A DNA stretch of 63,692 nucleotides, filler included, from Asterionella formosa (taxonomy: Eukaryota): the NCBI GenBank assembly GCA_002256025.1. It is 20 parts of 20 records of this genome, joined end to end, with 100 filler letters (N's around TTAATTAATTAA, not from the genome) between each part and the next. Parts side by side here need not be neighbours in the genome. Positions count along the whole stretch, not along the records: positions 13,057 to 41,366 come from NKIB01001251.1; 19 more parts are not named here. One strand, written 5' to 3'. The translations under genes were made by a program, and so were the position numbers. The first letter of the stretch is position 1, and every line of letters starts with the position of its first letter. Below the pieces are notes generated by a model. The model was not told the origin of the DNA. It did no database searches and saw only the letters and a list, made by a program, of their open reading frames with translations. Of the stretch, positions 1,767-20,600 are shown in pieces.

Positions 1767-1866
1767 NNNNNNNNNNNNNNNNNNNNNNNNNNNNNNNNNN
1801 NNNNNNNNNNTTAATTAATTAANNNNNNNNNNNNNNNNNNNNNNNNNNNNNNNNNNNNNNNNNNNN
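1767..1866. other. Artificial contig linker (first of 19)
   Basis: N44-TTAATTAATTAA-N44 (stops in all six frames), repeated at 1767, 3633, 5499, 7364, 9228, 11093, 12957, 41367, 43230, 45093, 46956, 48817, 50678, 52535, 54395, 56255, 58115, 59974 and 61832. Adjacency across linkers has no biological meaning. Confidence 0.98.
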
Positions 1867-2450
1867 TACTACTGCAGAGTGCATTCTTGCCATCCAAAAA
1901 GATCAAGAAGCTATCATCATGGCTCCCCAAAACCTGTTTTTAAAAGTGACCAATCTCTTGCTGTCTTGGTGATGGCCTGGAAACAATTAATATGTTCAAC
2001 AATCTGGATTGAATTGACATTAATACATTCAAAGTGCAAAGATTAGACAGATAGATAACCATTGAATTGGTATAAGCAGATCTTGAGAATCTTGAATGGT
2101 CACCATTTAAATATCTATTTTTAAAAAATGCACAATTTTGGTCATCACAATGCATGGCCATTGCAATGGCCATCCATCAATAACATTCTCCTATCATTGT
2201 TCCTTACTGTGATTTTGTGGATTGCTCGTTCACTGCTGGATCAAGAATTGTAGCATTTGGACTTATAGAATGAGTTGATGGTTCCTCGAGGAGGGCTCTC
2301 ATTCCAAGATAGTTTTGAGCGATTTTAACATTGGTTGTCAAGGAAGCACCAGCAAACTTCTTGAAATTACAAAGCAAAATGTACTGGACATTTGGTCTGA
2401 GAAGGAGGAATGAACCATGACAAGTTTGATGAACCTCAAAACTGTTAGGG
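1867..2450 (-). mobile_element. Possible degenerate copia 5' region (LTR end, PBS-like motif, gag start)
   Basis: Minus strand reads ..CCCTAACA|GTTTTGAGG.. at 2450-2434, resembling an LTR end plus PBS. Downstream decayed reading IGHF*KQVLGSHDDSF is only loosely gag-like. Confidence 0.25.
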
Positions 2451-2840
2451 TAGATATTAATGATAGAATATAACTAATAACATACATTAGTAAATGGAAA
2501 GGATTGGTAAGTTCAATTATGTAACACCATTATGAATCATTTGTGGTTGAGAACAAGTATTCTCATTGCTTTAGTCTACCTTTGTGTACTTTGCAACAAG
2601 TATACCAAAGCATGTATGGCCAATAGTGGAGACCAAACAAGGCAGTGCAATGCATTCGAGATTCAAGGCCGTTGCTAACCGTTGACCCAAAACAAAATCC
2701 AAAGACTTATTTTTGGATTGGTTTTGGTTTTGGTCAGACTGACGTAAAAATGATACTATCGGTTTTTGGGAAATCCTAAATGTTGTCAACCACCCATCTA
2801 CTGTGATGTAGGATGACAAAACCATTATAAAAAATGTAAA

Positions 2841-2999
2841 ATATTTCTATTAGACTACTTTTATAAATGAATTATTATGATTCCTATTCTGGAATCAGTT
2901 AGTTTTTCCCGCAATTTGAAAACATTTCATTAGACTACTTTTATAAATGAAATATTATGATTCCTATTTGGGAATCAGTTAGTTTTTCCCGCAATTTGA
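2841..2999 (+). repeat. Tandem duplication, period 80 bp
   Basis: ATTAGACTACTTTTATAAATGA...CCCGCAATTTGA starts at 2849 and again at 2929. Confidence 0.9.
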
Positions 3000-4108
3000 T
3001 CGATGCTGCTGTCTTGTCATCCAACTACCAGTACTACACACTGGTATATGCTATTGTGTCGGTTTGACGACATGTTGATTGTGGTGAAATCAGCAATTAT
3101 TTGTTGTTGTTGCTGCTGCTGTTGTTGTTGTTCTCACCAGTGTGGTACCAGGTACCAGAGTACCGTATAGCTATTGTTGCATATTTATATACATATGATA
3201 TATATGAAGCGTCCTATATGTTGTAGTGATTCTATGACAATAATAATTGGGTTTCTATTAACTACATTCAAAGTAGTCAATATGGAATCCTATATTTAGG
3301 TAACTTTGGAAAAAATGCCTAAATCTAATGCATTTGGGTAATTTGTTGGGATATGGGCACGGAATCCCCTAAATGTAATGCGTTTGCATTGCGTTTTTCA
3401 CTCCCGATAGCATCATTTTTTAGGGTTGCCATAACCAAAACATTGTTTGGTTGGCGTTTTAAAGGCCTAATTGCCTTTCTTTTTTCCTTCCTCCAAAGAT
3501 GTTTACAAACAGAAATTATAGTGGTACATCAAATATGTTGAGCACACTCAATATCAGAAAAAAATTGCATACATGGGGGGGGGGGGTAAATTTTTTTGTT
3601 TCAACAAACAAAGGAGGACCCACATTCCCAAANNNNNNNNNNNNNNNNNNNNNNNNNNNNNNNNNNNNNNNNNNNNTTAATTAATTAANNNNNNNNNNNN
3701 NNNNNNNNNNNNNNNNNNNNNNNNNNNNNNNNGACAAAGGTGAGCCGTGGCAAACTGTAGACCGACCATATGGTTTCGCAATATTTAATGACAAGGACAA
3801 AGAAAAGTTCATGCCGACAAGATTCTACAACACACCGGTACTTACTGACATGTATGTATGCGCATCCATCAGGTACCAGGTACCTGGTACCTCGTACCGG
3901 TTTTAGTACATACTCCATAATATCATAGTAAGTCATAACTATCGTCCAGTATAATTCTCTATTTATCTACCGGTGTACATCAATGCTCTATGTCAGGTGC
4001 GAATCAGGTACCTGGTACCAGGGGACCAGGTACCGGTACATCCAATGCATCACATACCGACCTCAAGCTAAGTACGGTATGAACCATCAGAATCCGTCAT
4101 CCGTTTTA

Positions 4109-4286
4109 CACTGTAAAAAAGTATTGAATGCAGGGAGTCATTATTAGGTTTTCCCGCACCTAAAATTCCAAAAACTGAAAAGGAAGTTTAACTTCGTCTG
4201 TAGCCTTGTACCAACATTTGTCTGTAGGACAAGAAGATATTCTCAATCATTTCCTGAATTTTAGGTGCGGAATAACCTAAAATGAC
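4109..4286 (+). mobile_element. Putative CACTA/EnSpm-type terminus (CACTGTAAAAAA) with subterminal inverted repeat
   Basis: CACTGTAAAAAA at 4109. Imperfect ~31-bp inverted repeat at 4137-4168 / 4256-4286 (core CCGCACCTAAAATTC). Partner end not in the contig. Confidence 0.45.
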
Positions 4287-5598
4287 CCTCAGGGGCAATT
4301 AATTTAACCTAAAATTCCCCACCTTCTCAGTAATTTTTAGGCTCTGAGTAATTTCTTAAGTAATGTTTTTAAGGGCAATATGGGGCACATCGAATTTTTC
4401 GGCAATAAAATTGCTGATTTTAGCATGACCACCAGAATAATGGTAATATGCATAGAGATGTTACAACAAGCGTACTAAAACACACTAGTAGAATGATTGC
4501 AACAACATGCAACATCAATGAAAATTGAACATGATGTTTGGAGCAACCAAAGTATGAAATGCGATGTAATATAATAAGTAGCATCAAATGAGAAATAGAA
4601 AAAAATTTGGGTTAGAAATGAAATAAAAAATAAGAGTTCCAATGGAGATGTATGCATTGTGAATCATTGTAGTACTTACACAGGCAACATTGACTTTCCA
4701 TCACCACACAACAATCAACAACCGAAAGAAGAAGAAAAAAAGCTGAACCCAATGTAGACCTGCATCGTTATGTAGCGTGAATGGTCTGGTTTCTGCAACC
4801 ATTCGCATCGCTGTAGTAGCCTGACACCAGTAGCAGTATTTCCGCCACAGTCATTCCTCTCCGCTGCCCACCAAACAAGCAACCCTGATCATTCCATTCT
4901 GCGCAAGCGTGATCGCCACGCTGCTCCAGAACTATTGACTCTCTCTAGCTGAGTATTCGTCATGTAGCTTCTGATACGATGTTGTAGTAGAAATGTAGCA
5001 AAGCGCGTTAGTACAAGAAAAGCATTGCTTGGCGGCAATATTGACATCATTGTCAACGACTATACAAATCAACAAATACGATCAAGCAACAACGGCACAA
5101 TACCACATCTTCAATGAGTAGTCATTGATGAATGCATTGGTTCTTATGTAGATATGTACAATCGAAAGAAAACAACAGTGCGTAACGACAAACAACGATG
5201 GAAGCGATCAAAACAAACCACGGAAGCAATCAAATCGGAAAGTCGGCCCGATAAATACGATCTACAATCCACATTCAGTATTTCACTGTTGTACTCACCG
5301 ATCCGCTTCAACTAGCATAACAAGCAGCAGACGATGGGATAAAAGAAAGACGAACGTTGCCTATTGCAAGCCCGAATAGAGCAAAGGCAGGCAAGATAGA
5401 GTGAGAACTATATTTGTGAGGACGAAATCGGGCATATGGTACGTAAAATCAATGAATATGTGAAGGATATAATTCAACATTTCAGGTCTCGTAAAAATNN
5501 NNNNNNNNNNNNNNNNNNNNNNNNNNNNNNNNNNNNNNNNNNTTAATTAATTAANNNNNNNNNNNNNNNNNNNNNNNNNNNNNNNNNNNNNNNNNNNN

Positions 5599-5839
5599 TA
5601 ATAATTTTGATAAATGCCCTTGTAATTTAAATAGTAACCCTTTTGACTACATATATTAAATTTTTATATCTATTGTTTCTTGTTTTCATTGGTATAGAGT
5701 TCTTGTATTCACTGTTGAACTTGTCCGCATCTTTGTGATCATCAATAGAGCGACAAGTGGGTCTCTTCATTGTTGTTTGCTTCTGGAAAAGTCGGTGTCC
5801 GTGTCATCCTCATTGCTTTTACTGTTTACATTAGAAGAC

Positions 5840-5874
<35 letters not shown>

Positions 5875-7363
5875 GTAACATAATTATGATTGATTGTTTT
5901 ATTTTCTATGATGTATTGATAACACTTGTGTACAGCCATATATTATCGCATTATAGTATCATTGTATCATTTTAAAATGATCATATTTTGATCAAAACTA
6001 TATCATAAACATTTTAAGAAGATGCATGAAGACAGAGATGTGATGCTGGCTAAGGCACTTGATGCATCCAGGGATGATGCAGTACTTATAGGCAAGGTTT
6101 TGGGTTCCCTCTTCGAAAGCAATCTTTCCTTCTTTTGAATCTCTGCCACTACTATTGTTATCGGCATACTTCATCATTTTTCTGGAGTAAGTTTCTTTCT
6201 TTTCTTTTCCGAAAACATAAAGTCGTCTAGTGTAAACGACGGAAGTAAGTCACGTTTCTTTTTTAATCTTTTCCATGAAATCCATTAAAAGCATGAAGTT
6301 CCATTTGGAAAGTTGTCAAAGGGCCAGAATACTATGATGTAAAACAGTGGAAGGGAAATGCGGAGCTTCTTGCGGCGCTTGTGGAGATGCAACTGGTGTG
6401 ATGGTAACCGAGTGTAGTAATTGTTGAACAGAGCACAGTGTAATATGCATGTTCCGCCAGTGTAGTGTTTACACAATACATATATAATAACAAGGAAAAA
6501 CGACACAACAATGCACGTGATGGCTGGCTGTGGAAGATACCGTTATGTGATATGCATCAATCTATATCACAATTCATATTATGGTGATGTGCATATCAAT
6601 GCATCCGCATACTTAGATCATATCCACCATATAATACTATCATATTAACTTTTGGCTTTTACTGTATATATATAAAATCGAATATTTTTTTATCAAGTAT
6701 ACTTTATGATTAATTGATCTTTCTTTTATGACGTATTGATAACACTTGTGTACAGCCATAATTTATCGTATTATAGTATCATTGTATCATTTTAACATGA
6801 TCATATTTTGATCAAAACTATATCATAAACATTTTAATAAATCATCACAGTTCTATGATCAATGCATCTTAGCTATGTGATATTATTTATTCAAATTTCA
6901 TATCATATCGAAGTAACCCTATTGTAATATCACATTATCATCTTATCGATCATTCAATGTTGATTGGGAACTGTATTCTACATCGTACTATGGAGTATGA
7001 TATTATAACACGCACTTTAGTAGCTAAGTAACTTCTGTAATGTACACAAGTCGACAGTGTACATACGCACACACTAATCATCATGTTTGAGGCAACGGAC
7101 AGTTCCAACGAGCAAGTGACGATATGGGTACCAATTTTTCCAGCAGCAAACCGCAATGATGAAGGACACTTGTCCCTCTATTGATGATGACACGGAAACC
7201 GATTTTTCCAGGAGCAAATAACAATGATGAGAGCCACTTGTCGCTCTATTGATGGCAACAAAGATTTGGACGAGTTCAACAATGAATACAAGAACAACAT
7301 CCCAAATGCGGAAACGAGCGATAGGAAAAAGAAATTGTAATCAGAATCATTCTATAAGAACTA
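5599..7363. mobile_element. Rearranged fragments of the right arm of the Plavaka-type element family
   Basis: 5599-5670 is the reverse complement of ~32630-32695. ~6110-7270 matches ~31295-32300 (for example the shared LHCALFNNYYTRLP reading). ~5880-6015 duplicates ~6700-6840. Confidence 0.85.
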
Positions 7364-7463
7364 NNNNNNNNNNNNNNNNNNNNNNNNNNNNNNNNNNNNN
7401 NNNNNNNTTAATTAATTAANNNNNNNNNNNNNNNNNNNNNNNNNNNNNNNNNNNNNNNNNNNN

Positions 7464-9227
7464 TTGAATAAAACTTACCGGTACATTTTTGTCATCTTAA
7501 CTTTGAGAGAAGGTAAACGTTTTGTCAGCTTTGTTCCAACAGAAGTGAATAGGTCCAACGAGCGACAAGAGCACTTACGCAATTTGGTTTGGTTTTACAT
7601 TGGTGCTCCCCAACAAGCGAAACGAGCTGTTTAATCAACTGAGAAAAAAGGAAATGTGGCTGCGTTTAGTTAACAATTTGTTGTTGTCCTGCCTCCCAAC
7701 GATTGTCATCCAAGTAGCTACCACATTGATGGCTTCATTACCTTAAACATTCTCCATCCTTCGAATGCGCAATGTGTCGAAGTCACAATGTTTTTCGTTA
7801 TGTATTGTGAAAATTTTCTTTTCTTGTCATGTGCTTTACTACGACGTATCTTTTCATGAAGCAGCAGGCATTGTTTGTTAACATGACAGAACGATTTGAA
7901 AAATATATTGGCCATGATTATAGTAATAAAATTTGTAAACATATATATATATATATAGCGTTATACATTTTATAAAATTCAAAGGCGCTCTCGATATGGA
8001 ACATCTGATATGGTTGAGATGGCCATACTCGCATATACATAATTCGAAAATACTCAATGCACTATATGTCCATTGTTTTCCACGACTACCGGTACATGTA
8101 CCGGTATTATCTCTGAAATTTGTTTGCATCGATATTTTCTACGTCCGTTGAAACTAATTATTTAGACCATTCAAATGCCGCAAGGGTTTTGGTAGCAAAT
8201 TGTTTAAGCCCCTTTTTGGGCGGGAGCTCTTCATGTGTACCGGTACATCATATGACAATAACAATGTTTCATTTATACATACAGGGTTCCAGTAGCAGGT
8301 AGTAAGTGATATACTGGGGGTAGTCGGAGTAGTAAACTAGCAACAGAACACCATATGTTCAGGACTGTTGCTACTGCAGTGGGACAGTAAATCATCATAG
8401 TTTTAGGATTGTATGATCGTAAAATTAGCCAGGCTGACGAGTTACTACCGGTACCAGGTAGTACGTCTACATCTTTTATCATCACCTTTAAGTAGCACCT
8501 ACGGTTATGGTGGTACTATGTTTTTCCCTATTATTTTCTGTCGCAGCTCTGTAGAGTCTGCCATGTACAGTTATAGTGGTACTATGTTTTTCCCTATTAT
8601 TTTCTGTCGCAGCTCTGTAGAGAGGCTGTGAACTTTCACAGCGCTGCCCCCCCCCTCTATTACCGGTATACCGGAAAAATTTGGTGCATCACCCATTATC
8701 GTGCGTTGCAACGGCCCACGACAGGGTGGCTGTGGTTATGGAGCAGGGGGTAGAACGCCACAACATGACGAAGTGCCAAGGATCATGAATGGGAAGAAAA
8801 CTTTGCTGCATTCTGGTGGTACCATTGGACTTGGGAAGCAGCGAGGAAGGTTGTATCCCGCCGTATCAAACGGTTTCGAATAAGAGGAGTTGGAACAAAG
8901 AGACGTGACAAGAACTGACCTGACACTTCTGTCCGACTTGGTCGATGGATGTCTCCCGCCTATTTGTGACTTCCTGCGCAACACAACAAAACTTGCCACA
9001 ACGACGAATCAAACGGTTTCGAATATGAGGAGTGGTTGGAACGAAGAGACTTGTCATATACATGACACTTCTGTCCGACTTGGTCGATGGAGCAAAAGAA
9101 ACGACACCAGCGTCCGGTTATTTGCAAATGGCTGTACTTGATTAAAAACAAATAACCATTTTGTTAGTAACTATTTATGAGTAAAAAAAATTCTTACTTC
9201 CATCTTTCCCCATAGGAATCAAGCAAA
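7464..9227. repeat. Repeat contig; ~7464-8420 is homologous to ~23570-24620 of the Plavaka-type element
   Basis: Direct sequence similarity. Also has a duplication of period 66 bp (~8500-8622), an 8-bp-stem hairpin GCTGTGAA-CT-TTCACAGC (8625-8642) and an internal duplication (~8866-8950 / ~9009-9090). Confidence 0.85.
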
Positions 9228-9327
9228 NNNNNNNNNNNNNNNNNNNNNNNNNNNNNNNNNNNNNNNNNNNNTTAATTAATTAANNNNNNNNNNNNNNNNN
9301 NNNNNNNNNNNNNNNNNNNNNNNNNNN

Positions 9328-11092
9328 TTTGCTTGATTCCTATGGGGAAAGATGGAAGTAAGAATTTTTTTTACTCATAAATAGTTACTAACAAAATGGT
9401 TATTTGTTTTTAATCAAGTACAGCCATTTGCAAATAACCGGACGCTGGTGTCGTTTCTTTTGCTCCATCGACCAAGTCGGACAGAAGTGTCATGTATATG
9501 ACAAGTCTCTTCGTTCCAACCACTCCTCATATTCGAAACCGTTTGACTCGTCGTTGTGGCAAGTTTTGTTGTGTTGCGCAGGAAGTCACAAATAGGCGGG
9601 AGACATCCATCGACCAAGTCGGACAGAAGTGTCAGGTCAGTTCTTGTCACGTCTCTTTGTTCCAACTCCTCTTATTCGAAACCGTTTGATACGGCGGGAT
9701 ACAACCTTCCTCGCTGCTTCCCAAGTCCAATGGTACCACCAGAATGTAGCGAAGCTTTCTTCCCATTCATGATCCTTGGGACTTCGTCATGTTGTGGCGT
9801 TCTACCCCCTGCTCCATAACCACAGCCACCCTGTCGTGGGCCGTTGCAACGCACGATAATGGGTGATGCACCAAATTTTTCCGGTATACCGGTAATAGAG
9901 GGGGGGGGCAGCGCTGTGAAAGTTCACAGCCTCTCTACAGAGCTGCGACAGAAAATAATAGGGAAAAACATAGTACCACTATAACTGTACATGGCAGACT
10001 CTACAGAGCTGCGACAGAAAATAATAGGGAAAAACATAGTACCACCATAACCGTAGGTGCTACTTAAAGGTGATGATAAAAGATGTAGACGTACTACCTG
10101 GTACCGGTAGTAACTCGTCAGCCTGGCTAATTTTACGATCATACAATCCTAAAACTATGATGATTTACTGTCCCACTGCAGTAGCAACAGTCCTGAACAT
10201 ATGGTGTTCTGTTGCTAGTTTACTACTCCGACTACCCCCAGTATATCACTTACTACCTGCTACTGGAACCCTGTATGTATAAATGAAACATTGTTATTGT
10301 CATATGATGTACCGGTACACATGAAGAGCTCCCGCCCAAAAAAGGGGCTTAAACAATTTGCTACCAAAACCCTTGCGGCATTTGTATGGTCTAAATAATT
10401 AGTTTCAACGGACGTAGAAAATATCGATGCAAACAAATTTCAGAGATAATACCGGTACATGTACCGGTAGTCGTGGAAAACAATGGACATATAGTGCATT
10501 GAGTATTTTCGAATTATGTATATGCGAGTATGGCCATCTCAACCATATCAGATGTTCCATATCGAGAGCGCCTTTGAATTTTATAAAATGTATAACGCTA
10601 TATATATATATATATGTTTACAAATTTTATTACTATAATCATGGCCAATATATTTTTCAAATCGTTCTGTCATGTTAACAAACAATGCCTGCTGCTTCAT
10701 GAAAAGATACGTCGTAGTAAAGCACATGACAAGAAAAGAAAATTTTCACAATACATAACGAAAAACATTGTGACTTCGACACATTGCGCATTCGAAGGAT
10801 GGAGAATGTTTAAGGTAATGAAGCCATCAATGTGGTAGCTACTTGGATGACAATCGTTGGGAGGCAGGACAACAACAAATTGTTAACTAAACGCAGCCAC
10901 ATTTCCTTTTTTCTCAGTTGATTAAACAGCTCGTTTCGCTTGTTGGGGAGCACCAATGTAAAACCAAACCAAATTGCGTAAGTGCTCTTGTCGCTCGTTG
11001 GACCTATTCACTTCTGTTGGAACAAAGCTGACAAAACGTTTACCTTCTCTCAAAGTTAAGATGACAAAAATGTACCGGTAAGTTTTATTCAA
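9328..11092. repeat. Near-identical reverse-complement copy of contig 7464-9227 (allele or paralog)
   Basis: Same end points and mirrored ORF sets. Differs by a few SNPs and one homopolymer indel (T5 vs A6). Confidence 0.95.
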
Positions 11093-12129
11093 NNNNNNNN
11101 NNNNNNNNNNNNNNNNNNNNNNNNNNNNNNNNNNNNTTAATTAATTAANNNNNNNNNNNNNNNNNNNNNNNNNNNNNNNNNNNNNNNNNNNNGCAGCTAT
11201 GGATGTGAAAGTGTCAAATCTGTTTGTAAAACATTGTTTTGAATTGTGCATCTATAAATTACATGAAAAAATCGCATGTGGTGACTTCAATTTTTGTGAT
11301 TGCTTTGCAATTTTATTTTGGATGTTGTGTTTGATATACGTATCAAATAGGAAACTGTTGTTCTCAATTTTTGTGGAGATTTTTGCTATTTTCATCATGG
11401 TCAAGACTGCAACAATAGCCATGATGCAGGATCCTCCAGCTGCTCACAACCAGCCCACTACACTGCATGTAGCATTTATGTATACAAAAAATGCATTATT
11501 TTAGTAATTATATAGGAGTGGCAACGGGGTATGCCTCCTGCTTTACTCTGATGATACTCCCAGTCATTGTTCATAGTTACTCCTTCTGTTCATGCATAAT
11601 TGCAACATAATCAGCGATTTACCCAGCTTGATCCACATCCTCTTATCAAGCCTTCTCTAGAAGCAATACGCATTTTCTACAATGCAGTAGAAAGGTACGT
11701 CGGTTAGATTAGTACATTTGTTCGAGTATAGCGCTAAATAGCGATAGCTTACTTTGGATCGATCAGGGTGGGCTGTTGAAATTACTTGAATTTCGCTAGC
11801 CAGCATAGTGGTTTTTCTCTACATGGAGTGGTATGTGATAATCAAGTTTCTTTATCCAATACTTTTAATTCTATTTCATCAGTTATCGATCATATAAAAA
11901 TTAAAATCCAATTCAAAACGTAGAAACAAACAAAGTACATGTAGAGAAATAAATCATTCTACTCAATTCGCTATGGTGGGGATGGCAATTGGATTCATTG
12001 CAGACGATGTTGGCTGCCAAAACCCTGCAATAAAGTGAAATCAAACGCAAACTATAGTATAGTTTTCAAAAAATTCCATCCATAATGCGCTCGTCCATGA
12101 ATTGATTCGCGAAATTCGATTGCCTGTTC

Positions 12130-12670
12130 CAATACCTCTAATTGAATAGGTAAAAATCACTGTCTCTGCAATGCTTCTTGTCCCATAAGTGAAATCTTTT
12201 AATCATTGCCGCCATAACACATTAATCTTTTTCAAAGAGTTCTGCAATGTAATGAACACCGAATTCAATTTCCTTGGACAGAACAAACCATAAGCCCCTT
12301 TAACAGCCTCAATCAACAAGTCAACATCATCCCTAGCTAGATTTTTCAACTGACAATCCTGTAAAGCAAGAAAAAAGGCCCATCATTCACATTCAGATCA
12401 GGATAATTCAGCGGTTGCAGTGGTGCTAGATTAATAGTCCATCCTATCACACTTTCTGCTTCTATAAAAATTGGATATTCCGCCAGTCTCAATACAAGGC
12501 GACGCATTTTCGTGTTGAAGGAATACAGTTCTGAATTAAATTGTTCCATCTTCCAGCCAATTCGCATATATCGCTGAAGTTACCATGTTCATAATACATA
12601 ATCTGCATTAATTTCTTTTGTTACATTCACCAGCTTTGTCTCTCTAAAACCCTGTCTCTATTGACCGTCC
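12130..12670 (-). pseudogene. Decayed Tc1/mariner (DD39D-like) transposase C-terminal half
   Basis: Across frameshifts: ETKLVNVTKE..SAIYANW..VFLQHENASP..WTINLAPLQPLNYPDLNVND..LLIEAVKGAY..VFITLQ..YGGND. Matches the QQDNA..QPPNSPDLNVLD..FLTLQ..GGN pattern of plant/stramenopile mariners. Confidence 0.7.
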
Positions 12671-13056
12671 GTTTCATCATTGCTATCAAGGTTCCTTGTG
12701 ATGTTGCGTAGCAAGAAATCGACGATGAGTTGACACTGTTCTCGTGGCAAGTCCTTCTTCTTTTTCATATTGGCTGGCTAGAGATGGGTCCAAGAAAGAG
12801 GGGAGGGGGGCGGAGAAAACATTCCTGAGGGGGCACGATTCCACAAAAAGCAAGCCAAAAATTGAGTTCAGTTTCACCTAGCTATTTCTAGAATACTTAG
12901 AACGTCATTCGATTCTGAATATTTGTTGAATTAGGGGGGGGGGGATTTTTGCCGGANNNNNNNNNNNNNNNNNNNNNNNNNNNNNNNNNNNNNNNNNNNN
13001 TTAATTAATTAANNNNNNNNNNNNNNNNNNNNNNNNNNNNNNNNNNNNNNNNNNNN

Positions 13057-14305
13057 CGTTTGTCAAGTTTAGGTAAGTTAACATAACTGGCAAGAGATAA
13101 AAACAAATCATTGAAGATTGCTTCACTAATGAAATGAGTCATATCATTTTACGACAAAGAATCTATTGATTTTTCATCAAATGCCATAGATGGATCACTA
13201 CCAAGCGAACTGGGTCTATTGAAAAGTGTTGCATATTTGAATGTAAGCAATAATCAGCTTAGTGGACCAATTCCAATGGAGCTTGGACAGTTGACCAACA
13301 TTGCAACATTGTCATTGTATAAAAACAAGTTGACAGGAACACTTCCACCAGAAATTGGCCAATGGGCTAACCTTGTTGTTAAATTGTTTATACAAAATAA
13401 TATATTACAGGGACCACTTCCGACAGAGATTGGATTGTTGACAAAACTATCAGCATTGAATATCAGCTATAATGACTTCACTGGTCCACTTCCGTCAGAG
13501 ATTGGATTGTTGACAAAACTATCAGCATTGTATATCAAAGATAACGACTTCACTGGTCCACTTCCTTCAGAAATTGGCTATTTGACAAGCATTGCAGATT
13601 TTCAAGCAAACACAAACCATTTCAATGGGACACTTCCTACAGAGATTGGATACATGAGAGGTCTAACAACATTGTATGTACAGGAAAACCAGTTGCCTGG
13701 TCCACTTCCATCAGAAATTGGCTATTTGACAAGCATTGCAGATTTTATAGCAAAAACAAACCAGTTCAATGGAACACTGCCTACAGAGATTGGATTCTTG
13801 ACAAGTCTAACATTATTTCATCTATTTCATAATCAATTGACTGGTGCAATTCCAACAGAAATTGGCAATTTGACAAGCATTGCAGATTTTCAAGCAAGCA
13901 CAAATCATTTCAATGGGACACTTCCAACAGAGATTGGATTCTTGACAAGTCTGACAGTATTACTTCTTTGGGAAAACAAGATGACTGGTGTACTTCCGGC
14001 AGAAATTGGCAATTTGACAATTCTCAGTGATTTTACGATTTTTTCCAATTTGTTTACTGGTGCAATTCCTACAGAAATTGGTCTTATGACTTCATTGAGT
14101 AAGTTTTGTTTATTTAAAACTTACATTTCTTGACCATTTTTTCTAAAATTTCACTTTCTTGACAGACAAATTACATTTTGGAAAGAACAATTTTACAGGG
14201 CTAGTTCCAACAGAAGCATGTAATATTGCAAATATATATTTTTGCCCACCACTGATTTGCAACTGTGATAAGTACTGTATCACGTATAACTTTGATTGTG
14301 ATTAA
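13057..14305 (+). CDS. Leucine-rich repeat protein (24-aa plant-type LRRs), 5'-partial, two introns
   Basis: Repeated NxFTGxLPxEIGxLTxL units. Phase-1 GT-AG introns at 13073-13159 and 14099-14165 restore the frame (RLSSL-ESIDFSSN; MTSL-NKLHFGKNNFTGLVPTEAC). Cys-rich tail, TAA at 14303-14305. Confidence 0.9.
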
Positions 14306-14454: not shown

Positions 14455-15549
14455 CTATTTTGTGTCATGGAATCTTGGCATAGCACTGTCTGGTGTTGGC
14501 ATGGGCAATTCATCAAAATAAATCGACTTGCTTGCCTGTTGAGCAGTCCATCGTTTACTGGGATCCCACTTCATTAAATTGGAGAATAACGTGAGACCGA
14601 CTGGTGATATTCCTAGAAAGCGATCCCACAGTTTTGCAGGTAGAATATATGGTAGGAAGTTCAATGGTCTCATTTGCAATCAAGGGTAGTTTAAAATACC
14701 TGGCCATATGGCGGCCTTATGTGGTGTGCGTAGTTTATTGAACAGTGTTCTGATCATTTCCATCTCTGTCTTGCATGTCCGAAGTGGCGTTCCCAATAGC
14801 AGTTCTCCCATGACACAGCCAGCTCCCCAAATGTCGATGGACTCATCATACCTGGAGGCACCCAACAGCAGCTCTGGTGGTCGATACCACAATGACATCA
14901 CCTTGGGGGTCAATGGTACTTTGTACTTGCGACTCAGTCCAAAGTCTGCCAATTTCAGCTCACCATTATATAACAAATTGGCGAGCTTTAAATCACGATG
15001 TAATATGTTACGAGCATGTATAAATTCCAGCGCTGAGAAGAGTTGCAACAAGAGACGCTTGACTTGAGGAAGGGAAAACGGTGACTTGCGATGTATCTGA
15101 TAGTGCTGATCAACTAGCTGAGCCAGATCATGAGGGCAGTAGTCAAACACGAGAAATACAACTGAGGATGATACTGCCACTGTTTGGAGTCGAATAATGT
15201 TTGGATGGATATGTTGGCTGCTCCGGAGCGTAGCAATCTCCCGAAGTGTAGTTAGCGGAAACCCTTCAGTGGCTTCCTGGTGAGGTAAACACCGTTTGAG
15301 GGCCACCAGCTGGTTTGTGTGTTTGTCTCGGGCCTTGTACACAATGCCGTACGTTCCTTCTCCAACGCGTCCAATCTTTTCGTATCGTTCTCCCACACTG
15401 GGACAACGACCATTGCTCCATTTCGGTTTGTTGTTTGTTGGTTTCAACGAGGTGTTCGACACGAAGCTTTCTCTTCTTCGTTTGCGATCAGCAATCTTCG
15501 TTTTGATCCCAGAAGCTTCATCGTTTGATTGAGAAGTCAGCACAGACAT
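14455..15549 (-). pseudogene. CDK10/CDK11-like cyclin-dependent kinase interrupted by an in-frame TGA (14680-14682)
   Basis: Motifs GEGTYGIVYKARD, VALK, GFPLTTLREI (PITSLRE/PISSLRE-like), HRDLK, ADFG, LWYRPPELLLG, DIWGAGC. Subdomain XI (WDPSKRWTA) lies beyond the stop. The start ATG at 15549 is a guess. Confidence 0.8.
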
Positions 15550-15726
15550 GGCTAGCAGTTTAATGCATTCCATTCCATAGGAATGTTCATGTGAATTGAG
15601 TAAGAATACCGCAGAGCTCCTTACCATCACTTTTCAGGAAAGAAAGGGATCAATGCATTGCAATATGGTAACTAATGGACTGGTGTATTGAATATTGAAT
15701 ACATTAGACTACCGAAACACGAAAAA

Positions 15727-15858
15727 TAAATCGTAATCGCTGTGTGAAGTCCGACATAGCGACTTACTTAAAGGTAAAGATGTATTAAAAGGATTAAGTG
15801 TAAAAAGAGTGAGCAAGATCGAGCACTCACTTCTTGCTTTCGCTATTGCTAACTAACA
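15727..15858 (-). repeat. 3' LTR of the CoDi element
   Basis: Diverged direct repeat of 19095-19231. Starts TGTT on the minus strand 2 nt after the purine tract GATAGAGTGGAAGTG (15875-15861) and ends ..GATTTA. Confidence 0.85.
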
Positions 15859-18800
15859 GACACTTCCACTCTATCGCCAATGCCTGCGTGATATAACGAC
15901 TAGTCAGTGCTGTACCGTATTGCTACGTATCGCTACATACTTTGCGCCAACCTTAATTGTTCAGTCCCCTCGAGCAAAATGGAGGTGACCAAGATGTTGC
16001 TTGCCACAAATCTATGACCTGGTTTTCAAAGCCACATGTCTTGCATGTCCAGGAGGTAACCAAGCATCTTATGACACATGATGAACCTATGCTGTGTTCA
16101 ATCTCAATACATGAATTGATCACATTAAAAATCTTTGGTTGCTTGTGCCAGTGGCTTAGTCAGCACATCAGCCAAGTTTGTCTTTCCATCCTCTTTTGTC
16201 ACTCTGATTGTGCCTGCTGCTACTGCCTCTCTTGAACGATGATAAGCAATTGAATTGTGTTTCTTCTTAAGCCTAGATTCCGGGAAAATAGTATTCTTGG
16301 TAACTGCCTCATCATTGTCACAAAAGACGTTGGTTGGCCCTTCTATTGGTATTCCAAACATTCTCAGTTTGTAGCGCAGAGCCTTCACTAACTCCACAGA
16401 GATCCTTATGGCAACAAACTCGCTTCCAAATGTCGATGTCTTGACCATATTTTGGCGTTTGCTGTACCACACTACTGGTGCCCTGTTAACAAAGAGTAGG
16501 ATACCGGTTTGTGAGCGTCTTGTTATACGATTACCTGCATGATCAGCATCAACAAAACAATGTGTTGACACCACATTTCCACGGGTTTCTGGCATGTCCC
16601 CTGGAATTGGCTCTTTTGCCCCTCAATAAAAATCATGCCAATCATCAACAACAGGGTGCTGGGGATCAAATGCCAACGTTCGCTTAGGTCTTGCTTTCAA
16701 GAATCCGAAGATATGATAAACCTGTTGAAGATGTCCTTCTCAAGGTAACGCAAGGTGAGAAGACAGTATTGACACTTCCGTTCTGTTGTGGGCGATGTGG
16801 TTTGCTGACATGGTGTTCAATGCCATATTTCCTTACAATCTGCATAAATTCAGCTTTAGGCCCAGTATGTTCGCTTGCGCCATCAGATGTCAGCTGGTCA
16901 GGAACTCTGTAATCGCGTACAAATTGTCGCAAAGCCTATCCAGCCATCGACTTTCGGTCCATTGGATATGCCTTCACAAAATATGACTCATTTGCAAATA
17001 TCTGTGCACAGGTGCTAGACCTTCATGAATGACCAGAATATAAACTTGGCCATTTTGCTGATCCATGTAAGATGTTGCTGCAGTTACGATGATTGGTATG
17101 TCACATTCAGGGTTATACGCTTCGGAATTGTATGGGGCCACATCAATACCTGACCAGTGTAGTGGAGCAGTACGAAATTTGATCCAAGTGCGCATGTGTC
17201 TGCATGGGAATCAAGTTCACAACGAGCTGTCTGGATATAAGTGTGATGAAGAGACAAGATAGTTCTAAGAATAGTTGGTGCAGCCCATCTCGTTGTTGAT
17301 TAATATGCTGCCAACGCACAAGACAGAGCCGCAAGTCATTCTGTTCTACTTCGTTTTGCGCTTTTCTTCCCTCCAAATGCATTTCCTGCTTGACTAGCAT
17401 TTGACTGCTTTGGTGTATCCTCTGCACCATTGTCTGCATTTGCCTTCTGAATTGAACTAATGATTGCCGTCGTTAGTTGCTTTGTAGTCAATTCAGATAT
17501 GGTTCGCTTGCTTCCACCTTGTTCTCCCTTCTTGTCGCGTTCTTTGTGAATCTTGTCACGCTCACCAAAAGATAGCGTCCTCCATTCCGCTGTAGAATAA
17601 TATCCAGTACTGGTTTTCTCTTGACTACTGTGTCCACTTCGCCTGTTTTGTCCTTGTCCATTTCCTCTTCCTCCTCGTCCACTGTTTCGCCCGCCACAAC
17701 CACCACCACGACCAATTTTTCTAGACAATTGATAATCCGGGGTCTGAGAAATCTCAGAGTTTAAATGGTTAGCAGCAACAGTAAAAGTGATCCCATCTGT
17801 ATTCAACTGATACCTTAGTTGTGCCACTGCTGCCGCTAATGCAGAATTCTGCACTTTGGTAAGAAGCTCATTGACACTGGCTCTCTCAGCTAATGGTTCA
17901 TTATCTTCCTCAAAAATGGTAAACATCCGCTGTAATGAATCTAGGAACTTGTTGAACGGTAAGGTTCGTTCAGTTTTGTAGTGCAAGGTATTTGGGATCC
18001 GCTTTGTATCAGCTATTCTCCTAGTGGAGGTTCCTTCACCAGCATAGTGACGACGCAAAGCAATCATGTCACGCCTGCCATCTTGGTACTTGGCAATGTT
18101 GCTTATCCAGTTCTCAGTGTTTTCTCCTTGCAAGAACCCAATAATAAGATTGTGCACTCGCCTTGTATTGGCTATGTAATACTGCCCATTAAGCAATGCT
18201 CAATTAATCATCCTTTCGTTGAATGTAGCATACTCTGTTCCTTGGGTGGGGTTCTCTAGCTCTTGCACAACATATGACAATGGAATATCATTTACCCCAG
18301 GAATGACCGATAGGTAGTTAATGAACGCCTTCTCCCATTCAGGCCATTTAAATTCATCCTTGAATTTTCCTGGATCAGCTGCCTTTGAGTTGGTGGTAAC
18401 CAATTCAATATCGGATTTACGAATTTGAGCCAAACTGAGGGCTGCATACATCGTTTCTTCATCAATATTTTCATGGTTTGGAATATGAATATTGCTTGCT
18501 CTATGACAGTCCTGTACCCAATGCATAACACCAGTCAGCTTCTTAGTGCGTCCTAGTCCAAAGACAATCCGTCCATTTGCCTGGGTACGCTTGCCAAACT
18601 CATCCGCCATATCACGGATATCCTTCTCCCAAAGGTAACGGAAATCTTCGAATCGGCCCAACCCTGCCTGCATGATGCTGGCCCTTTCGGCTTCTGATTC
18701 AAATCCAATCACCTGGAGTACTTTGTCAACGCCTATCAACATCATTGGTGAACCTTCATTCACAATCGGAGCAACTGCCACTTCGGCCATCTTGTTGTTC

Positions 18801-19081
18801 TGTTCTGTGCACGAATAAAATGTTAGTACGTGAGGGGCTTCACTTTTTGCTAATGCCTGATGAGATGATCAGTCTCATTTTGGCCGCTCGCTGCGCTAGG
18901 GATTGAGAAGGATTCCGTCTCTTTATCCGGTTGTCATGCTGTGCTTCCAGAGCCCGAATCCAGCCATCGCTGGTGTATCTGGAAATATCGTCACTTTGAC
19001 AACATCGCATTCACTATTCGATTCCTTTTTTTCCCGCTTAATTATCCTCTTTCCTCTAGCATCTCTCTCGCTTTTTATGAT

Positions 19082-19094
19082 GGGTCTTATAAAC
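19082..19094 (-). promoter_or_regulatory. Putative primer-binding site GTTTATAAGACCC
   Basis: Directly follows the 5' LTR at the point where LTR-LTR similarity ends. Resembles the copia-type GGTTATGGGCCC PBS. Confidence 0.6.
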
Positions 19095-19231
19095 TAAATC
19101 ATAATCGCTGTGTGAAGTCCGACATAGTGACTTACTTAGATAAAGATGTATTAAATGGATTTATTGTAAAAAGAGTGAGCAAGAACGAGCACTCACTTCT
19201 TGCTTTCGCTAGCAGCAAATTCAGCACAACA
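19095..19231 (-). repeat. 5' LTR of the CoDi element
   Basis: Repeat of 15727-15858. Outer boundary uncertain by ~8 bp. No target-site duplication found. Confidence 0.8.
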
Positions 19232-20600
19232 TTTGTTTTTCGCTTAAATGGATTCCTCTGTTGTCGCATAAGTTGTTATAAGTTGTTAGTTATATTTTCA
19301 AAACCAAGAAATTATGCTGTGAACAAGTAAGTGATGTATTGCCATACATCAGTCTTACTATGGATGTTTTGTTACTGAAAGGATGTCACTTACCCCTATT
19401 TTTGCATTTCCTAAACTGAAAGGATGTCACTTACACCTATTTTTGCATTTCCTAAAAATGTTATAAAACACCCGGCCATATCTGCAAGTTGCAACTCCTA
19501 AGGCATATCGGATGTGAATGCAGATTGGTTTGCTAACCGATGTATCTCCCGGTCATTTCAACTAAAGCCGCAGTTAGGCAAAGAAGGCAGAGAGTGATCC
19601 TGAACTTTCAAACTATAAATGGAATTGATCATGTGATGCACAGTCAGGCAAAGAAGTATAGAGTGATCCTGAACTCTCAAACTATATATGGAATGGAAGT
19701 GATGCACAACTTCCGGATAATTATAGAATGGAACATACAAACAAAGCACGTTTAGAATATATCAACTCTACATTTGGAGGTATGTGCATTAATAAAATGC
19801 AAGAAAGACAAAATAAATTCAACAATCATTTTAAATCGATTTAAAGTAAGTCAATCGTGATGTTTTGTTCTACTGTTGTTCTAAACATTTTCTTGTCTTA
19901 GTTGGTGTTACAGAAGATTACTTAAACAAGCTTGGTCAGTCTGAGTTTATTGGTTGGGCATGCAAGTTGTATGCGTTTGCTCAAGCAAGTTTCATTGATA
20001 GAGCAAGCAATTCCTATCACCTATGGAATGATGTTCTTGCTCGAGTTAATTTTATAGGTAGGGTCAGCTGTGGCGATCCCTATCTTATAGGGGAAAAAAT
20101 AGGGGAAATTAAATTCCTTCTGAGTGATCGAGCTAAATGTGAATTACAATCAAGATTTGTTGGTCCGGTTATTAATGCTTCGACAGAAGCATTTTGTTTC
20201 CTTGTATTAAAAGGGAAATTCCGATTACAACCTGGATGGATTAATTATAATCATTCCTTTTATTTACCTCAAGACCAATTACCTCGTTTCTGGCAGGATG
20301 TTGATGATATCGGTGGGAAACCACTTTTAAAGAAAAGTATGAGAGAGCAAAGTTCAGTGTCAGGAGGTCTCACTGATCAATGGACTGATGTCTAATTGGA
20401 ATATTTTCAACAATTGTGGTGATCTTGCATAGGATAACCGATTGGTCAGTAAAGCACCTCCAAGTCACTTTCCAAACACATTTTTTCCCCCTGAAATCCC
20501 AGAAGAGCAAATGAAGAAATATGGTGGAGATGCACTTCGACAAGATGATCTTGCTGGTAGTAGCATCAATTTACGACATTGTGTTAATATTAATAATAAT
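19232..20600 (+). pseudogene. Accessory gene A of Plavaka-type elements, copy 1 (unknown function, 5'-truncated by the LTR)
   Basis: Protein-level similarity to 25300-26180 (DWFA..KPxLGKE..ESDPEL..IWNGSDAxLP..TNKAxLxYIxSTFGGMCI; FIxWAxxLYxFAQ). GTAAGT donors at 19327 and 19846. Confidence 0.65.

Follow-up and report, generated by a model that had tools for sequence, protein, structure and literature searches.

The transcripts of a diatom Ty1/copia retrotransposon family may carry an optional spliceosomal intron in the 5' leader, with the spliced RNA acting as messenger and the unspliced RNA as genome; we give this reading a probability of about 0.6. The element was studied in the window, i.e. 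the whole stretch of DNA that was analysed (63,692 nt), where it lies on the minus strand, as do all the features described below. In the proposed scheme, transcription would normally start upstream of a 5' splice site that sits about 40 nt ahead of the primer-binding site, within the R/U5 portion of the LTR, and the 3' splice site would precede the gag start codon by 14 nt. Unspliced RNA would retain the primer site and could act as the genomic template of reverse transcription. Splicing would strip away the end of the LTR and the primer site, along with every upstream ATG and, probably, whatever packaging signal the leader may contain. Since the spliced RNA would keep the whole gag-pol frame, behind a short ATG-free leader, and lose the primer site, it would be a messenger fit for translation but not for copying. 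It is probable that the junction 19136|18804 is really spliced in members of the family. If it is, a messenger dedicated to translation is a reasonably likely role for the product.

Self-comparison of the window and a search with the element sequence each point to one copy. Its LTRs pair over a block of 123 nt (19211-19091 against 15845-15723, 92% identity). The 3' LTR (15723..15963) has the full family length and starts with TGAAC after GAGGGGA, a purine tract found directly 5' of the 3' LTR in the window and in the relative L002 alike. A remnant (19094..19231) represents the 5' LTR, in which 19211-19091 alone aligns to the 3' LTR; the last ~120-140 nt are retained and ~100 upstream nt of the family's LTR are missing. 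The gag gene (17336..18790; ATG at 18790) is interrupted by a TGA at 18202-18200, a position at which RNA contigs of relatives from runs X1, X4 and X5 have a sense codon. In pol, an integrase-core fragment (16684..16935) is suggested by a weak rve match (16687-16935, E 0.005, below the cut-off) that lies 5' of the C-terminal RNase H part (16125..16622, with 84% identity to pol of L002), and no RT part is left between integrase and RNase H. With a stop in gag, no RT and a 5' LTR without its upstream part, the window copy is a dead Ty1/copia element.

The assignment to Ty1/copia appears sound from the flanking LTRs, the primer-site motif at the LTR border, the purine tract and the copia-type RT domain of relatives. 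This domain (Pfam RVT_2) was found in L002, L003 and L005 with E values from 1e-17 to 9e-19; in L003 and L005 it is placed behind more than 800 residues, with no integrase match above threshold in either. The sequence clusters most similar to gag carry the label Bacillariophyta. Scanned for Rfam families and tRNAs, the window yielded 0 matches; gag-alignment and pol scans of viral contigs detected no relatives, and the gag scan of genome contigs found none. The pol scan of genome contigs gave three eukaryotic contigs, filed in bacterial bins, two of which are uninformative on the leader, as L003 begins inside gag and L004 has neither a gag match nor an LTR pair.

Candidate signals of a spliceosomal GT-AG intron, namely a 5' splice site, a branch point and the first AG behind it, can all be recognised in the leader. 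When the minus-strand sequence was reread, GTAAGT, TACTAAC, CAG and the gag ATG stood where the first-pass annotation had placed them, and the recomputed GT..AG interval agreed with its length of 331 nt. The putative intron (18805..19135) runs from GTAAGTCA to GTGCACAG. Its 5' splice site, GTAAGT (19135-19130), lies within the LTR and is part of the block common to both LTRs; the second copy claimed for the 3' LTR is present at 15767-15762. The branch-point consensus TACTAAC (18828-18822) would set its branch A 18 nt ahead of the acceptor G and is followed by ATTTTATTCGTGCACAG, the CAG of which ends at 18805. This predicted 3' splice site (18805..18807) is the first AG past the branch point. 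The T-rich tract described in the same place exists and is weak in the window; in L002 the pyrimidine tract is strong. Exon 1 would end with 19136..19145, the 10 nt matched by an RNA contig described below, and exon 2 would start with the 14 nt (18791..18804) between the CAG and the gag ATG. In the window, GTAAGT and TACTAAC occur at 0.38 and 0.064 per kb per strand, and therefore their joint arrangement is improbable by chance, though it was picked after looking. GTRAGT is found in the leader only at 19196 and 19135. Splicing from a donor 3' of the primer site had been named as an outcome that would count against the leader intron, and the leader holds no consensus donor 3' of that site. A TATA-like or AATAAA-like box at 19167-19157 would set the transcription start near the donor.

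The motif GTTTATAAGACCCATCA (19078..19094) lies at the border of LTR and leader and is conserved there in three copia families; therefore, it is read as the primer-binding site. As the donor is in the LTR, 42 nt 5' of this motif, splicing would remove the LTR end together with the site, as the first-pass annotation had proposed, and all upstream ATGs. Its count of six such ATGs is correct for the part behind the LTR (19062, 19010, 19005, 18967, 18937 and 18878); two more in the LTR part (19125 and 19102) bring the whole 331 nt to 8. No ATG occurs in 19231-19136. In L002, the corresponding interval has 6 ATGs, and the single ATG of its positions 2440-2519, at 2443, lies 5' of a TATA-like TTTATATATC. 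In folding stability the leader does not exceed shuffled sequence (z = -0.08), which gives no sign of a structured packaging signal. Self-priming of the Tf1 type finds no support here: perfect complementarity between the LTR and the next 100 nt reaches at most 7 nt, in the window as in L002, LTR/leader duplex energies are no better than those of shuffled controls, and an 11-of-13 pair (19179-19167 with 19077-19065) is not kept in L002.

The position of the donor is conserved among diverged relatives. GTRAGT starts 42 nt upstream of TTTATMAGACCCA in the window, 39 nt in L002 and 41 nt in L005, and the sequences flanking the donor are not conserved among the compared elements. L002 is 70-71% identical to the window in gag; L005, with the donor CAG|GTGAGT, is 38% identical in pol. 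The acceptor was compared in the window, L001 and L002, the L005 contig breaking inside the leader, and in all three a pyrimidine tract and CAG are found 14-25 nt before the gag ATG. Conservation of the branch point, which had been set as a check together with that of the donor, is partial: the donor recurs in three copia families and L001 keeps both TACTAAC and CAG, but L002 has lost TACTAAC, and its sole branch-point candidate is CTGAC, 47 nt upstream of its AG. In L002, CCATTCTCTTTTCCCAG ends 17 nt before the gag ATG, which gives a GT..AG interval of 452 nt. Tentatively, and at somewhat less than even odds, a diatom copia lineage comprising three or more families, with pol identity as low as 38%, may split messenger from genome by a leader intron, with the donor between transcription start and primer-binding site and the acceptor just ahead of gag. 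A scan of viral contigs with a 16-letter primer-site motif gave 60 loci that were rejected as relatives: gag and pol matches are lacking from all 60, and GTRAGT lies within 70 nt of the motif in a single locus; therefore, these are taken as chance matches.

RNA was examined in Logan contigs of four lake or freshwater metatranscriptome RNA runs (X1, X3, X4 and X5; minimum likeness 85); such contigs cannot show strand, start or abundance, and RNA libraries may contain DNA. The predicted junction 19136|18804 is present in these data, although thinly, in one contig from one of the four runs and with 10 letters on the exon-1 side. This contig (X5 record 29; 231 nt, depth 3.8) covers 18590-18804 with 8 differing letters in 215 (96% identical). 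The fit ends exactly at 18804, and beyond it is a 10-letter loose end, TTAGGTAAAG on the plus strand, that matches 9 of the 10 bases adjoining GTAAGT (19136-19145), as expected for the junction proposed by the first-pass annotation; the odd letter is the variant of the window's 3' LTR. With up to one mismatch, on both strands of 15600-19360, the 10-mer occurs at 19136-19145 only. The skipped part has GT at its 5' end and AG at its 3' end, and its edges share no sequence suggestive of template switching.

X1, the run with the most contigs (139 on the element), has the unspliced form only among its pieces listed. Record 8 of this run (345 nt, depth 23.2) is continuous from 18827 to 19172 and thereby unspliced across the donor, and another of its contigs has a 4-letter insertion within the donor. 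In X1, contig depth is about 31-33 in the intron and about 32-35 in gag; since these are equal, X1, if it is RNA, would be mostly unspliced. Among the joints listed for the four runs, none is a 19136/18804 joint and none is a GT..AG joint inside the coding region. Leader cover is none in X3, none past about 18886 in X4 and none past 18804 in X5, the latter two with gag cover; such gaps in contigs carry no weight as evidence. Two listed joints were rejected as splices. One, in X1, from 18938 to 19042, skips 103 nt with TT..AG ends in the RNA sense and is taken as a difference between copies; the other, from 19145 back to 15770, belongs to a contig passing through an LTR and fits both LTRs.

It could be argued that the motifs coincide by chance and that the X5 contig stems from a deletion at the DNA level, from a processed copy, or from an artefact of assembly or library. 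The single contig, its depth of 3.8 and its 10-letter overhang are compatible with this, as are assembly of the metatranscriptome from short words, the possible presence of DNA in such libraries, and the many leader indels between family copies, such as the 103-nt skip without GT..AG ends. However, the break falls at the exact base that had been predicted beforehand from the sequence alone, and, in the stretch examined, the predicted exon end is the sole match to the overhang. A chimeric join of 31-letter words requires a common 30-mer, and none exists between the two sites, the LTR pair being the only repeat found. The GT..AG ends and the donor position conserved in three families also speak against this account, and a processed DNA copy would presuppose splicing. 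Overall, we regard it as improbable. The conserved GTRAGT of the LTR may instead be mainly a U1 snRNP site, which blocks premature polyadenylation or aids unspliced RNA, with splicing as a minor by-product that has no role of its own. A precedent comes from foamy viruses, in which, according to parts of PMC5035957, the donor in R is required both for Gag translation from genomic RNA and for U1-mediated suppression of polyadenylation, and a portion of the EVD paper (PMC5580714) describes the same U1 role in Ty1/copia. Such a role would fit the AATAAA that precedes the donor by 26 nt in the 5' LTR of the window, and the predominance of the unspliced form among the X1 contigs listed. Yet this AATAAA near the donor is kept neither in the window's 3' LTR nor in L002, the good acceptor that the window, L001 and L002 share, 14-25 nt ahead of the gag ATG, would be superfluous for pure U1 binding, and the junction itself is seen in an RNA-library contig. 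This explanation is therefore considered unlikely, if slightly less so than chance or artefact.

Splicing could also be real but act against the element, with the host spliceosome diverting a share of the transcripts to RNA that cannot be reverse transcribed, or with the element limiting its own copy number. The anatomy would be the same as for a messenger, including a spliced RNA without the primer site. But a consensus donor and a good acceptor conserved across diverged families argue for a benefit to the element, because one base change removes a splice site and harmful sites would vanish fast; among the explanations weighed here, this one seems the least probable. The preferred reading remains an optional leader intron that divides messenger from genome.

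A major splice donor in the R region of the LTR is also a feature of deltaretroviruses such as HTLV-1. In foamy viruses, as in the window element, the 5' splice site is inside the LTR (R), upstream of the primer-binding site, and therefore all of their spliced RNAs are without that site, as parts of PMC5035957 describe. This parallel, which the first-pass annotation had drawn, holds for the donor and fails for the products: foamy viruses use far-downstream acceptors for pol, env and accessory genes and make Gag from unspliced RNA, so that their spliced RNAs serve downstream genes and not gag. The window element, in contrast, is a Ty1/copia retrotransposon and not a retrovirus, and its predicted acceptor is just 5' of gag; therefore, the spliced RNA would still encode everything. 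Closer relatives with optional splicing that yields a second RNA for translation are the copia elements Drosophila copia, barley BARE1 and Arabidopsis EVD, and in the case of BARE, translation and replication have been shown to draw on distinct RNA pools (portions of PMC3735527 and PMC5580714). The introns of these copia elements are in the coding region (gag end, protease or pol), affect which proteins result and spare the leader and primer site, whereas the window intron would be wholly in the 5' leader and would alter which RNA is copyable. It would not belong to the gag-only subgenomic type of splicing, as the interval 19135-18805 is entirely upstream of the gag ATG at 18790. Soybean Diaspora (Ty3/gypsy) similarly has donors predicted in the LTR and acceptors beside the gag start; unlike the present case, with an RNA junction and conservation across families, it is a prediction only, in another superfamily and with a very long leader. 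In mouse, LTR-initiated host transcripts also use a donor upstream of the PBS and exclude the PBS from the mature transcript (PMC12853362, a preprint), but these are chimeric or domesticated host RNAs and not an element's own gag-pol messenger.

A literature search on leader introns, or introns 5' of gag, in LTR retrotransposons, with subscription-only papers outside its reach, met no described case. Supplementary Table S2 of PMC5580714 is on introns of Arabidopsis Ty1/copia elements and could include a leader intron. A word search of Maumus et al. 2009, on diatom copia elements and the CoDi lineages, found no word beginning with 'splic' or 'intron'. If the present reading is true, the lineage would provide the first documented case, among all LTR retrotransposons, of an intron 5' of gag.

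Retroelements use one transcript as both messenger and genome, and a division of these tasks is known for few of them. An intron that removes just the primer site and an ATG-laden leader would be a simple switch between translating and copying that leaves the proteins unchanged; if real, it would be, alongside gag-only splicing and dual promoters, a third and independent way of reconciling translation with replication. Spliced transcripts would then be missed when elements are found by their PBS or leader, and RNA-seq levels would give too high an estimate of replication-competent RNA. As PMC2806351 reports, stress induces diatom retrotransposons, and these elements shape diatom genomes; therefore, it would be of practical value to know which of their RNAs can transpose.

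The LTR retrotransposon runs on the minus strand from about 19231 to 15723, and it is assigned to Ty1/copia since its relatives carry Pfam RVT_2. A 123-nt block is common to both ends (19211-19091 vs 15845-15723, 92% identity). Between these blocks lie gag (18790-17336, minus strand), whose start codon is the ATG at 18790 and which a TGA at 18202-18200 interrupts, an integrase-core fragment with a weak rve match only (16935-16684, minus strand), and the RNase H end of pol (16622-16125, minus strand). The reverse transcriptase part is absent from the window copy; the pol of L002, one of five related copia loci (L001-L005) found in metagenome and genome-bin contigs, aligns only from residue 487 on. 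The closest gag-like protein clusters are labelled Bacillariophyta. The order in the L002 metagenome contig (pol, 3' untranslated region, LTR, leader, gag) is what an assembler yields on merging two LTRs. In alignment with L002, the family LTR begins with TGAAC directly after a GAGGGGA tract, at window position 15963, and a contig from an RNA run (record 1) starts fitting at the same place, at 15965. Therefore, the 3' LTR is about 240 nt long (15963-15723). Only the last 120-140 nt of the 5' LTR are kept, and the sequence upstream of 19211-19231 is unrelated. Without most of its own promoter region the window copy is dead, and the intron question concerns the family.

Several features adjoin the element. 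A 41-nt tandem duplication (19374-19455) lies just upstream of the shortened 5' LTR. A contig from a poly(A) library (X3 record 15, depth 50) covers 19298-19360 and extends beyond, and contigs of a second RNA run, X1, also lie over 19218-19360; therefore, a different expressed repeat seems to adjoin or replace the upstream part of the 5' LTR. About 90 nt behind the 3' LTR is a gene for a CDK-like protein kinase (14455-15633, minus strand; Pkinase E 1.5e-50), the frame of which is interrupted near 14700 and continues in a different one; a very short intron or a frameshift would account for this. On the plus strand, a 72-nt tandem repeat of at least 7 units lies inside a 304-codon open frame (13333-14035). 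Nineteen pairs of 44-N runs, each pair with TTAATTAATTAA in between, are spaced ~1865 nt apart (1767-13056 and 41367-61931), which is read as a ~1.86-kb tandem array flanking the element with a masked stretch per unit; Rfam gave nothing in the readable parts of these units.

The first-pass annotation had predicted a 331-nt leader intron that would remove the primer-binding site, and its motif positions were all borne out when re-read in the sequence. The 5' splice site GTAAGT (19135-19130, minus strand) lies within the LTR block and has a second copy in the 3' LTR (15767-15762). The branch-point consensus TACTAAC is at 18828-18822 (minus strand), and the first AG behind it is that of the 3' splice site CAG (minus strand), which ends at 18805 and is separated by 14 nt from the gag ATG. 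The window background, per kb and strand, is 0.38 for GTAAGT and 0.064 for TACTAAC. The six leader ATGs were likewise found within the candidate intron, behind the LTR; the intron contains 8 ATG triplets in total, and the LTR part upstream of the donor contains none. GTRAGT occurs only twice in the leader, at 19196 and 19135. The former (GTGAGT, 19196-19191) is in the loop region of a perfect 8-bp inverted repeat (AGCAAGAA/TTCTTGCT; 19178-19204 on the minus strand, and 15803-15847) and is kept in both LTRs. A donor 3' of the primer site had been named as an alternative, and no GTRAGT was found in that part of the leader.

Part of the stretch 18200-19300 is present in 8 RNA runs that come from 5 lake or freshwater metatranscriptome studies; the best of these runs contains 0.30 of the words sampled from it. 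Logan contigs of four runs from four studies were aligned to 15600-19360 with a minimum likeness of 85, which gave 139 contigs for X1, 7 for X3, 21 for X4, and 6 for X5. These contigs are relatives and not the window copy itself. X1, X4, and X5 read G for A at 18202, by which the TGA of the window becomes a sense codon, and 6 letters at 18481 are missing in X1, X3, and X4, as in L001.

X5 record 29 (231 nt, depth 3.8) aligns to 18590-18804 with 8 other letters in 215. Behind 18804 it carries 10 extra letters, TTAGGTAAAG on the plus strand, and in the RNA sense it reads CTTTACCTAA and then AACAGAACAACAAGATG. When the 10-mer was searched on both strands of 15600-19360 with up to one mismatch, it matched only 19136-19145, the ten bases abutting the donor; the one mismatched letter is a variant of the window's own 3' LTR (CTTTACC there). 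Therefore, the contig breaks at the exact predicted base, and its overhang is the predicted exon end. By our own arithmetic, the chance of a 9-of-10 match to one fixed 10-mer is about 3 in 100,000. The skipped stretch has GT at its start and AG at its end. The predicted 19136/18804 junction is thus present in the RNA data as one contig, in one of the four runs, with 10 letters on the exon-1 side; since these are too few to align as a second piece, no such joint is among the joints listed. An artefact or a DNA deletion variant, to which a single contig would be open, is unlikely, since the edges are exactly as predicted; a processed DNA copy would itself derive from splicing. There is no repeat common to the two junction edges that would suggest template switching, and no 30-mer common to both sites that could mislead the assembler.

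The unspliced form is also represented. X1 record 8 (345 nt, depth 23.2) is continuous from 18827 to 19172 across the donor, and among the pieces listed X1 depths are the same over the intron and over gag. Therefore, the unspliced form exists and is probably dominant in X1, as would be expected of genomic RNA or if X1 contains DNA; contigs carry no information on strand, start, or amount, and DNA can occur in RNA libraries. In one X1 contig the donor contains a 4-letter insertion, and a 103-nt difference lies at 18938-19042. This difference was rejected as an intron because it lacks GT..AG ends, and the contig was taken as another decayed copy.

Conservation of the signals, which had been proposed as a check, holds for the donor (window, L002, L005) and in part for the branch point, which is present in L001 and absent from L002. 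L001 (gag 94-95% identical), an unspliced DNA locus whose leader is present from about 19010 downwards, keeps TACTAAC and CAG, with three additional AACAG-like units ahead of the ATG; its positions 1-33 recur about 150 nt later in that leader, owing either to rearrangement of the copy or to an artefact of assembly. In L002 (gag 70-71% identical), GTAAGT occupies 2520-2525, CCATTCTCTTTTCCCAG has its last base at 2971, and gag begins with an ATG at 2989; the 452-nt GT..AG interval holds 6 ATGs, one straddling the donor, and TACTAAC is absent, with just a CTGAC lying 47 nt ahead of the AG. L005 (pol 38% identical; contig in a bacterial bin) has CAG|GTGAGT at 5835-5840, and its contig breaks inside the leader, with only 56 nt preceding the ATG, so that an acceptor is not placeable. 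The leaders of L003, which starts inside gag, and L004, in which no gag match or LTR pair was found, are uninformative. The contigs of L003, L004, and L005, which encode eukaryotic copia polyproteins, sit in public genome bins labelled Bacteroidota, Chlamydiaceae, and Gammaproteobacteria; they most likely represent algal DNA that was binned in error.

The motif TTTATMAGACCCA at the LTR/leader border is common to the window (19093-19081), L002 (2559-2571), and L005 (5876-5888). It looks like a primer-binding site, since a short motif is kept there across distant elements and such a site has to match an RNA of the host. Upstream of the motif, the donor begins at a distance of 42, 39, and 41 nt, respectively. 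The U5 stretch that separates donor and motif could not be aligned in L005, and at the DNA level this element is independent; by our arithmetic (2/4096 per position), the probability that a GTRAGT falls there within four positions of where the spacing predicts it is about 0.2%. Unlike a site for a tRNA 3' end, the motif (window 19078-19094, minus strand; L002 2558-2573; L005 5875-5890) has no TGG start; its reverse complement resembles one anticodon-stem strand, the 7-nt loop CU-NAU-AA, and one more base. This would fit priming by the 5' half of a tRNA, possibly Ile tRNA with inosine. Drosophila copia is primed by the 5' half of a tRNA. No tRNAs were found in the window.

In deltaretroviruses the major donor lies in R, upstream of the primer site, and joins downstream genes, as does that of foamy viruses, whereas here the acceptor lies before gag. 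The foamy-virus donor has the same position in a review (PMC5035957). Splicing is known from Drosophila copia, BARE1, EVD, and further Arabidopsis copia elements (PMC3735527, PMC5580714); their introns are located within the coding region, and the resulting gag-only RNA retains the leader and primer site. For soybean Diaspora, a 2005 paper predicted LTR donors and gag-adjacent acceptors; no later report of such an intron was found in open-access papers and bioRxiv, and a word search of the founding diatom CoDi paper (PMC2806351) gave no mention of splicing or introns. The main role of the donor could be to bind U1, and thereby to suppress polyadenylation or help the unspliced RNA to be expressed, as described for foamy viruses and EVD (PMC5035957, PMC5580714), but this leaves the conserved acceptor before gag and the junction unexplained. 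Splicing could also act as a brake on the element, a reading with which the conservation of both sites agrees poorly.

An optional leader intron fits these facts. The unspliced RNA would carry R, U5, the primer site, and a long leader with ATGs, and could be reverse transcribed. In the spliced RNA, a short, ATG-free first exon would be joined to the sequence that begins 14 nt ahead of the gag ATG, with the entire coding region kept; it would lack the primer site, so that minus-strand synthesis could not start. Exon 1 is at least 10 nt in the X5 contig, and a TATA-like box about 30 nt (window) or 55 nt (L002) upstream of the donor suggests that it would be short. From the loss of 8 upstream ATGs and by analogy to other retroelements, we infer that the spliced RNA may be the preferred template for translation. 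Overall, one exact RNA junction and conservation in three families support a leader intron that removes the primer site; the messenger role of the spliced RNA is plausible, and the design is simple and apparently undescribed.
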